Positions 57,502 through 61,054 of a stretch of 64,000 nt of DNA are shown here, one piece after another. The notes beneath the pieces were generated by a model, which was given only the letters and a program-made list of their open reading frames with translations, was not told the DNA's origin and did not search any database. Origin of the DNA: Syntrophobacteraceae bacterium (GTDB taxonomy: Bacteria > Desulfobacterota > Syntrophobacteria > Syntrophobacterales > Syntrophobacteraceae). The number at the start of each line of letters is the position of its first letter. Position 1 is the stretch's first letter. The DNA lies in assembly GCA_033812955.1 (NCBI GenBank), contig JAPXSS010000006.1, positions 1,911-65,910 of the forward strand, read 5' to 3'. Made by a program: the position numbers and the translations under genes.

Positions 57502-58443
57502 TCAACCTTGTTCTGATGACATTAGCCCGGCCATGACCTGGTAGACCTGCACGGGACGGCGAATGTTCTTGAAATGATGTCGGCCTGCCGGTTCGAGGCG
57601 GAATGCCTGTCGGACTCGCCGGTAGGTTTCGGGGCCAACCAGGATCGCCCCATCGGTGGCGAGGGCACTGATTCTGGCAGCAAGATTGGTCACACGTCCT
57701 GAAGCGGTAAAGGTCCACCGTACTCCGGTGAGACCCTCGAACCGGGTTGACCCCACCGAGGCCAGCCCTGAGTTGATGCCCATGTTGATCGCAACCGGCG
57801 CCAACAAGCTGCGGTGCTGCGCGTTGATCAACCCGGTGCGGTCATGCATGCCGATAGCCGCGCGAACCGCATTGGCGGCATGGGTCTTCGGGTCTTGATG
57901 GCGAAAAATGATCATGAGACCATCTCCCGCCGTCTCGTTGATGTCCCCGTCGTTTTCAAGGATCACATCGAGGAAGCCGGAAAAGTAGGTTTCTATCAGG
58001 TAATTTACCTTGTCCTGAGCAAGCTGCTCGCTCATCCGGGTATAGCCGGCGGCATCCAGAAAGAGCACGCTGACGTCTTCGTCGCGCTTTGCCAGAGCGG
58101 GATTTGTGGGGTTGTTTTCGATCAGCGCGGTGACTTGGCGAGGGACGAATTTGGTGAGCTGGTCTTTGATGGTTTCGAGCAGGCGGACTTTCGACAGGGT
58201 CGCTTCGAGTTCTCGATTCCTTGCGGCCAGCTCCTCGATGATCTGCTCGAGGTGGAATTCCCGGGCTTCAACCTGAACCAGCATCATCCCGAACGATTCA
58301 GCCAGTTCCCCGATGGCGGGTGGATACTTCCCCGGCCTGGTCAGCTCGAGCAGATCGTCAACTTGCCGGTAATCTCCTCCTGCCACCTTCCGTGCAAGGT
58401 CCACCAGCAGCGGGATGACCCCCGCCAGTTGGTTGCATGCCAT
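57502..58443 (-). CDS. class III adenylate/guanylate cyclase with N-terminal HAMP-like/coiled-coil segment, no TM helix
   Basis: VSVLFLDAAGYTRMSE (metal-binding Asp), NETAGDGLMIIF, INMGINSGLASVG, WTFTASGRVTNLAAR. Confidence 0.8.
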   Translation of the reverse strand: MACNQLAGVIPLLVDLARKVAGGDYRQVDDLLELTRPGKYPPAIGELAESFGMMLVQVEAREFHLEQIIEELAARNRELEATLSKVRLLETIKDQLTKFVPRQVTALIENNPTNPALAKRDEDVSVLFLDAAGYTRMSEQLAQDKVNYLIETYFSGFLDVILENDGDINETAGDGLMIIFRHQDPKTHAANAVRAAIGMHDRTGLINAQHRSLLAPVAINMGINSGLASVGSTRFEGLTGVRWTFTASGRVTNLAARISALATDGAILVGPETYRRVRQAFRLEPAGRHHFKNIRRPVQVYQVMAGLMSSEQG

Positions 58444-58452
58444 GGTGAAGCC

Positions 58453-58785
58453 TCAATGATAAGGAGGTGGAACCTTCTCGAAGGTCATCATCCTGGTGCC
58501 AGGAAGGCTGATGCGGATAGCACCCTTGTCCAGGGTGCCGACGATGACGCCTCCGCCTTTGGTATTCACTCTGAGCTCATCATCCTTTACATACCAGGCA
58601 AAGGAAACTTCTTCGTCGTTCACCCTCCAGATGCCAACTCCATTGGGTTTGAGTTCCATCATGATGTGGGCGGGTTTCTGCGAATCACCCGAGTCCGCCT
58701 GATAGGTACCCATAACCTGGTCTTTCGACCCACATGAGACGATGATGAACAACAGCAGGCAAAGGGTACAGAGCTCTAACCGCAT
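58453..58785 (-). CDS. small lipoprotein of unknown function
   Basis: MRLELCTLCLLLFIIVSCGS, a lipobox (IVSC) after a hydrophobic signal peptide. 10 nt from the cyclase start. Confidence 0.5.
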   Translation of the reverse strand: MRLELCTLCLLLFIIVSCGSKDQVMGTYQADSGDSQKPAHIMMELKPNGVGIWRVNDEEVSFAWYVKDDELRVNTKGGGVIVGTLDKGAIRISLPGTRMMTFEKVPPPYH

Positions 58786-58822
58786 GATTGGTCCTGATCT
58801 TGTAAACATTTAACAACGGTCC

Positions 58823-59320
58823 TCAAACCGAGGGAGAGGCAACTCTGATTCTACCGGACTCGGCAAGCCCTCCCTTGCGGAAGGTCAGGAAGCGGTCACA
58901 ATAGTAGACCTGGATAGCACCGATGAGCATGACCGCATTTTCGATGATTTTCCTCCAACCGATGGGTTCCCCCACCGTATCGTAACAGCCGCAGCTGATG
59001 GGGGCACCCCAGTACATGTTGATCAGGACCATGACATCGAACAGAATGAGCATGAACCCAATCAGGATGATGCTGGCCCGTGTCAGGAACCCGAGGATCA
59101 GAAAGAGCCCGCAGACCAATTCAAGCCAGGGCAGGACCACAGCTCCCAGGTTGAGCACGGAGTAGGGGACAAGACGGTAGTTGGCGACAGCTTCAGCAAA
59201 CTGGGCCGGGTATGGAATCTTGCTCATACTTGCATAGATGAAAAAGCCGCCAATCCCGAACCTGATCAACAACGCCAGATAAGGATTCGCCAGGAGTCGT
59301 CGGAGATACACCCGGATCAT
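58823..59320 (-). CDS. MauE/DoxX-family integral membrane protein
   Basis: Four hydrophobic helices, WLELVCGLFLILG, C-terminal ISCGCYD (CGC motif typical of MauE-like proteins). 4-nt overlap with the upstream gene. Confidence 0.65.
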   Translation of the reverse strand: MIRVYLRRLLANPYLALLIRFGIGGFFIYASMSKIPYPAQFAEAVANYRLVPYSVLNLGAVVLPWLELVCGLFLILGFLTRASIILIGFMLILFDVMVLINMYWGAPISCGCYDTVGEPIGWRKIIENAVMLIGAIQVYYCDRFLTFRKGGLAESGRIRVASPSV

Positions 59321-60240
59321 TTCTTTGCCTTCCCCTCCACTGGATACCCCTGCTGTTCCCAGGCAGGCAGACTTCCTTCCAGGATTCGCACGTTCCGATG
59401 ACCACGGAGCAGCAGCTTTTCCGCCAGTTCCAGGTCATAATGCCGGCTGATGGTGTTGCCGTAGACAACGATGTCCCGGTCTTTGTCTTCGTCTGCAAGA
59501 GTCATCATGTACACGATGTCAAACAGTGGGAGGGGCATATTGCGTGCCCCTCTGATGTGGCGCAGTTGAAAGAAATTCTCGGGCATGGCATCCAGCATGA
59601 GGGCCTTGCCGGCCTGAAGTTCTGTCATGGCGGCAGCCGCGCTTATGGTGGGAATGCTGGTCCGATCTGCGGCAGCCGGGAAGAGTGGGATAGCGTGGGG
59701 ATTGGAGAAGTTAAAGATGATTGCCAGAACAACACTGATCCCGATGACCACCAGGAAGTCGAGCCACGAAACCCGCGACGCCCGGTAAGCCTCACGAGCC
59801 TCTAATTCGAGGAGCTTTTCATCCCTGATGAGCCAGCGCCGCAATTCCTTGAAAAACACTTTGGAGGTTTCCGGGAATTCCCGCAGGATGCGATCGAACT
59901 CATCTTTTGACAAGACCAGCAGGTGTGTCACCTCGAGCGCCTCGGCGTTGGCTGACCGCGGCTCACCAGTGAGCAGCGCCATTTCGCCGAAAGACTCGGA
60001 GGGGCCGGGATAGGACAGGGTGGTCTCTACACCGTCTTTGCTTTTACGAAAGATTCTTACCCGCCCTGACCGGATGATGTAGAGACCGTCACCGGGATCA
60101 CCTTCCCTTAGGATGGTGCTATGTGGCGGGACAACCAGAGGCCTGACGGTTCGGGCGATCGCTTCGAGCGCGTCCCTGGGCAGGTCTCGAAAAATTGGGT
60201 TGCCCGCGAGGAACTCCGCCGCGTTCTGAATCTCTTTCAT
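59317..60240 (-). CDS. cyclic-nucleotide-binding domain - TM helix - rhodanese-like domain protein (rhodanese catalytic Cys absent)
   Basis: cNMP site FGEMALLTGEPRSANAEA. TM segment WLDFLVVIGISVVLAIIF. Rhodanese-like C-terminus with IVVYGNTISRHYD where active rhodaneses have a CxxGxR loop. Confidence 0.7.
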   Translation of the reverse strand: MKEIQNAAEFLAGNPIFRDLPRDALEAIARTVRPLVVPPHSTILREGDPGDGLYIIRSGRVRIFRKSKDGVETTLSYPGPSESFGEMALLTGEPRSANAEALEVTHLLVLSKDEFDRILREFPETSKVFFKELRRWLIRDEKLLELEAREAYRASRVSWLDFLVVIGISVVLAIIFNFSNPHAIPLFPAAADRTSIPTISAAAAMTELQAGKALMLDAMPENFFQLRHIRGARNMPLPLFDIVYMMTLADEDKDRDIVVYGNTISRHYDLELAEKLLLRGHRNVRILEGSLPAWEQQGYPVEGKAKK

Positions 60241-60242
60241 GG

Positions 60243-60818
60243 TCAGCGCTGCGTTTTGTGGATTTCTCTGAGCTCCTTCAACAATCCATCAAAATCCTTG
60301 ATCTCTCCCAGATGAGACAGGAGAATCTTGCCGTCTCCGGAGAGCAGAACCATGGCGGGTGTCCCCGGCACTTCAACGACCTCGGCCACCGTCAGCCGGT
60401 CGTCCGGAAAAACGGGAAACGGTGTGTTGGTGCTCTTCTTGAAAGCCTCGACTTGGGTCTTGTTGTTGCCGATGGCGACTGCGATCATTTTCACATCCCG
60501 AGACAGCGCGGCGTCAGTCCGGATCACCTTGTGGAGCCTGTTGAGAACGGGGGCGTTGGCGAGGCAATGAGTGCAGAATACATCCATGAACTCAACGAAA
60601 ACCATTTTCGAAGACACATCGGAAAGCCTGAAGGGTCCCATGCCTTTCAGCCCGAGATACTTCTGCACTTCCGGAGATTCGGGAGGAGGCAGGGTGAACG
60701 CGGGGAGCGAGCTTCCCGGCGCCAGCCCCTCTGCCAGCACCATCGAACCAGGGCCACCCAGCAGGATGAAGAACAAACCGATCAGGAAAAGCGACTGCAA
60801 CAATCGTTTCTGCTTCAT
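60243..60818 (-). CDS. secreted or membrane-anchored TlpA/redoxin-like thioredoxin-fold protein
   Basis: Signal/anchor MKQKRLLQSLFLIGLFFILLGG (start 60818, RBS AAGGAGAA). CxxC active site in FMDVFCTHCLANAP. Confidence 0.7.
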   Translation of the reverse strand: MKQKRLLQSLFLIGLFFILLGGPGSMVLAEGLAPGSSLPAFTLPPPESPEVQKYLGLKGMGPFRLSDVSSKMVFVEFMDVFCTHCLANAPVLNRLHKVIRTDAALSRDVKMIAVAIGNNKTQVEAFKKSTNTPFPVFPDDRLTVAEVVEVPGTPAMVLLSGDGKILLSHLGEIKDFDGLLKELREIHKTQR

Positions 60819-61054
60819 GCAACTATTCTCCTTGGGACCATCTTGTTTCACCCACCGGACCTGTTGCGCGGAAGCGCGACGGGGCCGGTTACAGAATGCG
60901 ATTCCACAGCAGCGCATGCCCTCCCCCAGCTCGTTCCTTCACGGTCCGATATCGGGGGAAGGCTGTCTGAATGTATACAGTATCGGCAGATATGTTCAAA
61001 AGGAAAAGTCAGAAATGCAGGTGAGTTTTTCCCCACCCCGCAGGCCTGCAGTTC

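Follow-up and report, generated by a model that had tools for sequence, protein, structure and literature searches.

We analyzed a 64,000-nt stretch of a Syntrophobacteraceae metagenome-assembled genome (contig JAPXSS010000006.1, positions 1,911 to 65,910), hereafter the window. The genome is 95% complete and comes from an anaerobic digester, and the DNA of the window recurs in anaerobic digester metagenomes. Five minus-strand open reading frames (ORFs) encode, in operon order, a TlpA-like thioredoxin-fold protein, a protein in which a cyclic nucleoside monophosphate (cNMP)-binding domain is joined through a transmembrane (TM) helix to a rhodanese-like domain, a MauE/DoxX membrane protein, a small lipoprotein and a class III nucleotidyl cyclase (Table 1). 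Our favored reading, held with moderate confidence, is that the locus encodes a MauE-type periplasmic thiol-disulfide module that is regulated by a second messenger through inside-out control. The original prediction, which was made from the sequence alone, had described five tightly packed genes, and our reading of the sequence confirmed the packing, the spacing and the motifs CTHC, IVVYGNTISR and CGC. The first two genes are separated by a 2-nt gap, the second and third share a 4-nt ATGA overlap, and the last two intervals are 13 nt (37 nt when counted from the second Met of the lipoprotein) and 9 nt. Because the TlpA-like gene is preceded by a 236-bp gap and then a malic enzyme/PTA gene, and the cyclase gene is followed by a convergent ORF, the five genes form a bounded block. 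An NCBIfam search returned no equivalog name for any of the five proteins.

Table 1. Features of the five-gene block and its borders, with positions given in window coordinates. AF2, AlphaFold2.
Feature	Position	Strand	Basis or remark
Exported TlpA/ResA-like thioredoxin-fold protein, 191 aa	60243..60818	-	Pfam Redoxin, AhpC-TSA, Thioredoxin_8
CTHC, residues 82-85 of the TlpA-like protein	60564-60575	-	plus cis-Pro GTP motif
Single-pass sensor-TM-rhodanese membrane protein, 307 aa	59317..60240	-	Pfam, hydropathy, AF2 model
cNMP-binding domain, residues 36-121	59878..60135	-	PF00027, 92.5 bits
Phosphate-binding cassette FGEMALLTGEPRSA	59950-59991	-	intact by alignment
Sole TM helix, residues 159-178	59707..59766	-	hydropathy, AF2; followed by conserved FN..NP.G juxtamembrane motif
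Rhodanese-homology domain, residues 202-296	59353..59637	-	PF00581, 49.7 bits
Active-site loop IVVYGNTISR, residues 257-266	59443-59472	-	Gly261 at the catalytic Cys position
MauE/DoxX four-helix membrane protein, 165 aa	58823..59320	-	PF07291 MauE, 91 bits
CGC motif, residues 110-112, TM3-TM4 loop	58985-58993	-	after the third hydrophobic helix
Small lipoprotein, lipobox IVSC	58453..58809	-	no Pfam or NCBIfam match
Lipobox Cys26	58732-58734	-	sole Cys of the lipoprotein
Soluble class III nucleotidyl cyclase, 313 aa	57502..58443	-	PF00211 Guanylate_cyc, E 4.5e-16
Cyclase catalytic domain	57532-58089	-	D130, D174, N253, R257, Glu170, Thr246
Cyclase motif NETAGDG containing Glu170	57919-57939	-	alignment
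Convergent ORF, 206 aa	56836-57456	+	no Pfam or NCBIfam match
Weak sigma-70-like element TTGAAC-16 nt-TATACA, candidate operon promoter	60972..60999	-	read from sequence, inside the 236-bp gap

Separate transcription of the genes would have argued against the original prediction. Contigs of four metatranscriptomes, from a strain about 95% identical, cover all gene junctions of the operon. In three of the four runs the contigs end at 60948-60964, upstream of the first gene, with zero coverage beyond; these ends lie just downstream of the TTGAAC-16-TATACA element. A promoter role for this element is suggestive only, and a promoter consensus scan reported no promoter, this element included. A terminator scan predicted terminators no more often than in shuffled sequence. 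Co-transcription of the five genes is thus supported, and it falls short of proof because the contigs are unstranded and one of them crosses into the convergent gene.

The arrangement of the genes is conserved well outside this genome. Full-length cNMP-TM-rhodanese proteins were found in 13 of 40 genomes of relatives (50-97% identity), and a profile of the TM helix plus rhodanese part matched 78 loci, all from Desulfobacterota, which span Syntrophobacteraceae, Desulfobacterales, Desulfarculales, Desulfosudaceae, Desulfovibrionaceae and Desulfonatronovibrio. The MauE gene directly follows the rhodanese gene in 77 of these loci, and in 43 of the 78 the two genes overlap by an ATGA that combines the rhodanese stop with the MauE start. 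A TlpA-like gene lies upstream of the rhodanese gene in 64 loci, and a lipoprotein gene lies downstream of MauE in 64. The complete order of TlpA, rhodanese, MauE and lipoprotein genes recurs in 58 of the 78 loci from several Desulfobacterota orders, which is beyond chance. One subclade retains just the rhodanese-MauE pair, and a distant locus (L116:1376-4423) has TlpA-like, MauE and lipoprotein genes without a rhodanese protein, with a gene for a formylglycine-generating-enzyme-like protein (FGE-sulfatase) directly after them. Since MauE is present at 77 of the 78 rhodanese loci, it is the hub of the cassette. Conservation of the neighborhood had been proposed as a check on the original prediction; the cassette is conserved, and the conserved unit is four genes (TlpA-like, sensor-TM-rhodanese, MauE and lipoprotein), or the bare rhodanese-MauE pair, rather than the five genes first described. 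The fifth, the cyclase gene, is operon-linked in this genus only.

The 307-aa product of the second gene matched the Pfam families cNMP_binding (E 1.6e-26) and Rhodanese (E 5.3e-13), an architecture found in at least 566 clusters at 90% identity. The protein contains no cysteine and has a single hydrophobic segment (residues 154-182). Its AF2 model, with a mean predicted local distance difference test (pLDDT) score of 77.8, consists of a cNMP-binding domain (1-121), a helix (123-155), a TM helix (159-179) and a rhodanese domain (196-301). Three Lys or Arg residues precede the TM helix and one follows it, which fits an N-in, C-out orientation. A topology prediction had been proposed as a check on the original prediction; with one TM helix, the sensor should be cytoplasmic and the rhodanese extracytoplasmic. 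The PF00027 match, together with a phosphate-binding cassette that has its Gly-Glu and Arg residues, predicts that the N-terminal domain binds a cyclic nucleotide. The Gly and Glu are invariant in the family and the Arg is kept in most members; three proteins (P0036, P0044 and P0074) have Met or Ile instead of the Arg (GDPMSA, GEPMSA and GEPISA) and may no longer bind cyclic nucleotide.

The C-terminal domain has a rhodanese fold, as judged from the PF00581 match and the alpha/beta domain modeled by AF2, and lacks the catalytic Cys of the C-x4-R loop, as was originally noted. Gly261 occupies that position, the Gly is invariant across the family, and the VYG loop is present in all members of both alignments (14/14 and 30/30), never with a Cys, so that the motif reads G-x4-R. 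The domain also aligns with the Cys-less rhodanese Alr3790. By these sequence features it is a rhodanese-homology domain and not an enzyme.

Comparison of the loci showed that the constant part of the sensor protein is its C-terminal 160 residues, comprising the TM helix, the FN..NP.G motif and the rhodanese domain. The N-terminal part varies and is a cNMP-binding domain (proteins of ~307 aa), HisKA plus REC (~536 aa), or one or two unassigned modules of ~180 aa (386 or 582 aa). Cassettes with the unassigned modules (L086, L088, L097 and about 12 others) have same-strand genes for Peripla_BP_6, sCache/PAS histidine kinase and REC-STAS proteins upstream of the TlpA-like gene, forming a seven-gene unit. 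We rejected a GAF identity for these modules, as a PDB profile search gave merely the NifA and DevS GAF domains at E 0.4-1. None of the sensor-rhodanese variants has a recognizable cytoplasmic effector output domain. Because the assigned N-terminal domains are all of types common in cytoplasmic signaling and no output domain was found, the simplest reading is that information would flow from the cytoplasm to the periplasmic domain. Interchangeable input domains (cNMP, REC and unassigned) fit a cytoplasm-to-envelope switch of the kind that the original prediction had proposed, and such a switch remains the simplest reading of the one-helix topology and the domain swapping.

The third gene product is better matched by MauE (E 9.5e-26, 91 bits against a cut-off of 27) than by DoxX (E 2.6e-08, 34.8 bits). 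MauE-based disulfide formation was described recently: two MauE proteins, B8FLW7 and H1XRV2, were shown to replace DsbB. They come from Desulfatibacillum aliphaticivorans and Caldithrix abyssi, and delta-dsbB E. coli supplied with them regains motility and PhoA activity (Gonzalez et al., bioRxiv 10.64898/2026.03.05.709764). The same preprint reports that both Cys residues of the CGC between TM3 and TM4 are needed for function, that TM1 has a conserved Lys and TM2 a conserved Glu, and that ~8% of MauE proteins carry thioredoxin-fold domains as fusions; rhodanese is unmentioned in it. The cassette protein has the corresponding Lys34 (SKIPYP, TM1) and Glu67 (PWLELV, TM2) in conserved motifs, followed by a CGC that is retained in 65 of 66 cassette MauE proteins with Tyr or Phe after it. 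Charge distribution and the topology predicted in the preprint would place this CGC in the periplasm. No Desulfatibacillum locus was among the 78 found by the profile search. The source genome has two MauE genes, the cassette copy and a copy fused to a cation diffusion facilitator (CDF), and a Pfam search of this 95% complete genome found no DsbB or VKOR match.

The likely partner of MauE is encoded by the first gene. This protein matched Redoxin (E 7.8e-09) and AhpC-TSA (E 5.5e-08) and has a signal-peptide-like N-terminus. Its ATG at 60818 has an AAGGAG 9 nt upstream, and alignments of its orthologues begin at the same Met. It is thus predicted to be an exported thioredoxin-fold protein with a CxxC and a cis-Pro, both of which occur in every full-length aligned orthologue. 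The dipeptide varies (CTHC, CPHC, CPQC and CPLC), CPHC being DsbA-like. Scores for the named subfamilies fell far below their cut-offs (ResA 48 bits versus 170, DsbE 20 versus 123 and TlpA 17 versus 230), and MauD was not among its NCBIfam matches; we class the protein by sequence as TlpA-like in the broad sense alone.

We consider oxidation the more likely direction of the MauE-TlpA-like pair; the direction has been demonstrated for two other MauE proteins only. In the strongest alternative, which we nonetheless judge unlikely, the module is reductive or isomerizing: the TlpA-like protein would keep envelope cysteines reduced, for example during cytochrome c or copper-protein maturation, MauE would feed it electrons from menaquinol, and the sensor-rhodanese would still regulate. 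The best NCBIfam matches of the thioredoxin (ResA, DsbE, StoA and TlpA) are all reductive, albeit all far under cut-off, the host is a strict anaerobe from digesters, and the MauE preprint cites a report of a possible reductase role. However, the two MauE proteins that restore oxidative folding in delta-dsbB E. coli include one from the same phylum, and a genome with no DsbB or VKOR match needs some oxidant. In addition, the C.HC motifs (CTHC here and CPHC in relatives) are DsbA- or PDI-like.

The cyclase encoded by the fifth gene has the class III core, with metal-binding D130 and D174 and transition-state residues N253 and R257 aligned with those of CyaB and Cya2. It has no TM segment, and its helical N-terminus (residues 1-118) had no Pfam match at E up to 1, for which reason we dropped a HAMP identity that had been guessed from its pattern. 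The Lys that specifies adenine is replaced by Glu170 in all eight orthologues. Glu170 aligns with a Lys in Pseudomonas aeruginosa CyaB (3R5G) and with Glu488 of the guanylate cyclase Cya2 (2W01), whereas Thr246 at the second specificity site aligns with the CyaB Thr. An E488K substitution turns Cya2 from a guanylate into an adenylate cyclase (PMC5995499). The Glu/Thr pair points to cyclic GMP (cGMP) or mixed specificity rather than to classic cyclic AMP (cAMP) synthesis. The original prediction had left the signal as cAMP or cGMP; with Glu and not Lys at the base-specifying site, cGMP would be at least as likely as cAMP. To our knowledge, no characterized enzyme has the same Glu/Thr combination.

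Orthologues of the cyclase (62-98% identical) keep D130, D174, N253, R257, Glu170 and Thr246. The gene is operon-linked in five genomes (the source genome G000 and G006, G004, G003 and G002) and unlinked in three (G024, G013 and G009), where its neighbors included no cassette-related genes. In a further relative (G001), a 32-residue remnant that is 81% identical to cyclase residues 92-123 lies right after the lipoprotein gene (L035:8343-8438), and the operon cyclase appears to have decayed there. The operon-linked cyclase orthologue is confined to this genus, and the link is real and lineage-specific. Of 14 relatives with a cNMP cassette, 8 have a cyclase orthologue, as against 0 of 27 that lack the cassette (Fisher 3e-5, uncorrected for shared ancestry). 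Other same-strand cyclases lie beside cNMP-type cassettes at L048, L050 and L051, so that other cyclases have been recruited to the cassette at least twice independently. The large zinc-ribbon-cyclase-AAA-TPR proteins of L050 and L051 have Glu at the base-specifying position, the 477-aa cyclase proteins of L048 and L051 have Gly, and CHASE2 cyclases with Lys adjoin REC-type cassettes. The source genome has six cyclase domains, and Glu occupies the specificity site in the operon cyclase alone. Two of its cyclase domains without the specificity Lys (C11:40864-41334 and C52:696-1211) have Asp in one case (VVDFLGD) and Arg in the other (IGRFLGD), and a further cyclase domain on C198 has an in-frame TAG. 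With five cyclase domains besides that of the operon, and about three cNMP-binding proteins besides the sensor, cross-talk in this genome is likely and the system is not closed; the originally proposed cognate cyclase would hold for this genus, and the claim of a self-contained system was not borne out.

The distribution of cyclases also bears on a second alternative, in which the rhodanese protein serves the MauE complex constitutively, as a structural part or a membrane tether. The cytoplasmic domain would then matter only for stability, localization or oligomerization, the periplasmic chemistry would be ungated, and the cyclase would serve other receptors. Most cNMP-type cassettes have no cyclase nearby, the Arg of the phosphate-binding cassette is lost in the three members named above, and the genome offers several cyclases and several cNMP-binding proteins. 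We nevertheless regard this explanation as quite unlikely. The phosphate-binding cassette is conserved in most members, the cyclase orthologue occurs only in genomes with the cassette, and replacement of the N-terminal domain by REC, or by modules fed by a histidine kinase and REC-STAS, is hard to explain without signaling.

Relatives of the rhodanese domain suggest where it came from. Ten related genomes encode 170-190-aa proteins that consist of a TM helix and a rhodanese domain with the loop YCDGE.C (C-x4-C) and are 28-33% identical to the TM-rhodanese part of the sensor fusion. Their two loop Cys align, in order, with Gly261 and Arg266 of the sensor protein. Four of the ten come after an ACR3-like transporter and have MauE or a CDF-MauE fusion beside them. 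As relatives carry plain C-x4-C TM-rhodaneses next to MauE, the sensor protein appears to derive from a MauE-associated rhodanese that lost its redox activity and was fused to a sensor. Three such loci (L122:1233-4592, L128:1607-4500 and L126:1969-5645) have an ACR3-like transporter, a TM-rhodanese with YCDGE.C, and then MauE or CDF-MauE; in L122 a universal-stress-type ORF lies between the transporter and the TM-rhodanese. These arrangements hint that MauE-rhodanese pairs are linked to arsenic or metal handling. Outside the window, the sole other MauE of the source genome is the C-terminal part of a 519-aa His-rich CDF-MauE fusion with the motif CGCF (L113:4611-6170, contig C8), preceded by a shortened ACR3-like ORF. 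The same fusion type lies downstream of a C-x4-C TM-rhodanese in L125 and L126.

A third alternative is that the module handles small inorganic sulfur, selenium or metalloid substrates such as thiosulfate, polysulfide or arsenic-thiol compounds, with the rhodanese as a non-catalytic anion binder or sensor and MauE/DoxX acting like DoxD-type quinone oxidoreductases. In its favor, the cassette MauE is recognized by the DoxX model as well, C-x4-C TM-rhodaneses paired with MauE in relatives lie directly after ACR3-like transporters or by CDF-MauE fusions, and the loop retains the rhodanese Arg (G-x4-R), normally an aid to anion binding. This explanation strikes us as improbable, since no sulfur-, selenium- or arsenic-metabolism genes were found in the neighborhoods of the sensor cassettes, thioredoxin-fold partners with a CxxC typify thiol-disulfide exchange on proteins, and the experimental evidence on MauE concerns protein disulfides. 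Very improbable is outside-in signaling, in which the periplasmic rhodanese with MauE, TlpA and the lipoprotein would sense envelope redox and change how the cytoplasmic domain binds cNMP or its partners, so as to buffer the signal or pass it inward. Inward signaling is usual for single-pass receptors, and the lipoprotein fold weakly resembles the N-domain of the envelope-stress sentinel NlpE (E 0.03), but no output domain of the DNA-binding, kinase or cyclase kind lies on the cytoplasmic side of any variant, cNMP-binding and REC domains receive signals, and the periplasmic domain has no cysteine for redox sensing.

We therefore return to second-messenger control of a MauE-type module, for which we propose the following sequence of events. 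The cyclase, the messenger source in this genus, would make a cyclic nucleotide, with cGMP favored by Glu170, and this would bind the phosphate-binding cassette FGEMALLTGEPRSA of the sensor domain, as its conserved residues suggest. The long helix and then the TM helix would relay the resulting change to the dead rhodanese in the periplasm, a route suggested by the architecture and the domain swapping. Judging from the gene coupling and the C-x4-C paralogues, the dead rhodanese probably still binds MauE, and it may gate, block or scaffold exchange between MauE and the thioredoxin. Quinone-linked MauE would swap a disulfide, via its periplasmic CGC, with the exported TlpA-like CxxC protein, which would act on envelope substrates, more likely by oxidation. 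The beta-barrel lipoprotein is placed as an accessory subunit. A bolder form of this proposal, which we put forward tentatively and think more likely wrong than right, is that sensor-TM-rhodaneses are inside-out transducers of a new class, pseudoenzyme versions of a MauE-associated rhodanese that bind or release MauE according to an exchangeable cytoplasmic input (cGMP or cAMP, phosphorylation, or partner-switching), and that in this genus a dedicated Glu-type cyclase makes the cGMP that switches periplasmic disulfide formation on or off.

Several observations weigh against second-messenger control as proposed here. TlpA/ResA-type proteins are usually reductants, which, like the reductase report noted above, sits poorly with an oxidase. 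The cassette MauE has CGCYD and not the common CGCFG, with Asp at the position of a conserved Gly. It is not known to be an orthologue of the tested MauE proteins, and support from the preprint stays at the level of the family. The juxtamembrane helix through which the signal would pass is modeled at low confidence (pLDDT ~50-60). Six of the 14 relatives with a cNMP cassette have no cyclase orthologue, the cyclase is unlinked or absent in most cNMP-cassette genomes, and the co-occurrence statistic ignores shared ancestry. The additional cyclase domains and cNMP-binding proteins of the source genome also count here, as does the want of an assignable function for the lipoprotein and the cyclase N-terminus. 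Finally, the RNA contigs are unstranded and come from a related strain, and one runs into the convergent gene, so that some DNA may have been carried over.

Among known systems, the closest is MauE/MauD. The cassette resembles it in a MauE of four helices that has Lys in TM1, Glu in TM2 and a periplasmic CGC in the TM3-TM4 loop, in an adjacent exported CxxC thioredoxin-fold protein, and in a host without a DsbB or VKOR match. It differs in having no methylamine dehydrogenase context, a thioredoxin that is not a MauD orthologue, and Tyr-Asp rather than Phe-Gly after the CGC, and it adds a lipoprotein and a sensor-fused Cys-less rhodanese, neither of which appears in the MauE preprint (bioRxiv 10.64898/2026.03.05.709764). 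Like DsbB-DsbA and VKOR-thioredoxin, the cassette pairs a quinone-linked membrane enzyme with a periplasmic CxxC carrier, although MauE belongs to an unrelated family of membrane enzymes. We know of no second-messenger-binding subunit in the DsbB-DsbA and VKOR-thioredoxin systems.

For the signaling part, the nearest parallel is LapD, which with LapG of Pseudomonas fluorescens reportedly carries out inside-out signaling by cyclic di-GMP (c-di-GMP). In both cases a cytoplasmic second-messenger receptor would be joined through helices and the membrane to an inert periplasmic domain whose only plausible job is to bind a partner. Here, however, the ligand would be a cNMP, the domains are cNMP-binding and rhodanese, there is one TM helix and the target is thiol redox, whereas LapD uses c-di-GMP, HAMP, GGDEF and EAL domains and two TM helices to act on a protease. 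A Pfam search of the cassette proteins found no LapD-type domains (HAMP, degenerate GGDEF-EAL or LapG-binding periplasmic domain), and we take the likeness as one of mechanism and not of family membership.

The original prediction had drawn its comparison with mycobacteria, where a DoxX-SseA-SodA complex of Mycobacterium tuberculosis is said to act as a membrane oxidoreductase complex in thiol homeostasis. Both systems pair a membrane protein of the DoxX superfamily with a member of the rhodanese family. SseA is reportedly an active, Cys-containing sulfurtransferase on the cytoplasmic side, whereas the rhodanese here is Cys-less, single-pass and predicted to be periplasmic, and the membrane protein is better described as MauE (91 bits) than as DoxX (35 bits). 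Membership in the DoxX-SseA system was rejected because the rhodanese is missing its catalytic Cys; the comparison is a poor one, and a DsbB-like MauE enzyme with a thioredoxin-fold partner serves better. The C-x4-C TM-rhodanese-MauE pairs of relatives share a TM helix and periplasmic rhodanese just ahead of MauE but are 170-190 aa long with two loop Cys and no cytoplasmic sensor, in contrast to G-x4-R and a cNMP domain here. The cyclase is like Cya2 (2W01) and CyaB (3R5G) in its class III core, both Asp and the Asn/Arg pair, with Glu as in Cya2 and Thr as in CyaB; unlike them it is soluble, has no CHASE2 or TM sensor, and carries an unassigned N-terminus of ~118 aa.

Each domain of the cassette is already known. 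Our literature searches on MauE/DoxX with rhodanese and thioredoxin, or on a cNMP domain with rhodanese in Syntrophobacter, returned nothing relevant, and we found no description of a Cys-less, sensor-fused rhodanese subunit, of interchangeable inputs, of a dedicated lipoprotein or of a Glu-type cyclase partner. This agrees with the original view that the architecture is not a described system. The disulfide-forming systems of DsbB, VKOR and now MauE are treated as constitutive housekeeping. If the proposal is correct, a second-messenger receptor subunit would let bacteria tune oxidation of envelope proteins from the cytoplasm. An anaerobe would thereby regulate its oxidative protein folding, and cGMP would gain a new role in bacteria. 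Inside-out signaling across the bacterial inner membrane, of which very few cases are known, would gain a cyclic-mononucleotide example, and a common dead-rhodanese domain and an unannotated lipoprotein family would each acquire a function. Desulfobacterota, which are central to anaerobic digestion and syntrophy, would then possibly use cGMP signaling.

The mature lipoprotein (~90 aa) was modeled by AF2 as an eight-stranded beta-barrel (pLDDT 86.7). A Foldseek search of the PDB gave nothing below E 0.01, the best match having E 0.011, and resemblance to potempin E, the NlpE N-domain, YedD and fatty-acid-binding proteins (TM-score ~0.5) was not significant, so that no function was assigned. The family is small, with 273 clusters at 50% identity among 1.84 billion proteins; of 401 genomes sampled from the phylum, 32 have a member. 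Neighbors were looked up for three small, distant members, and all three lie after MauE. We treat the lipoprotein as an accessory subunit without an assigned role. A 534-aa protein (P0207, L114:225-1829) has five tandem copies of the lipoprotein domain; it lies on a short contig with no MauE nearby.

We discounted the convergent ORF as a member of the system, as it matched no family and, among the related loci examined, adjoins the cassette solely in a relative that is 97% identical. Genes of other kinds recur beside a few cassettes. In L072:8310-9860, L075:5499-7016 and L105:8363-10021, a gene for a TolC-like outer-membrane efflux protein (OEP) lies downstream of the lipoprotein gene, and in L122 OEP and HlyD-like genes lie downstream of MauE.

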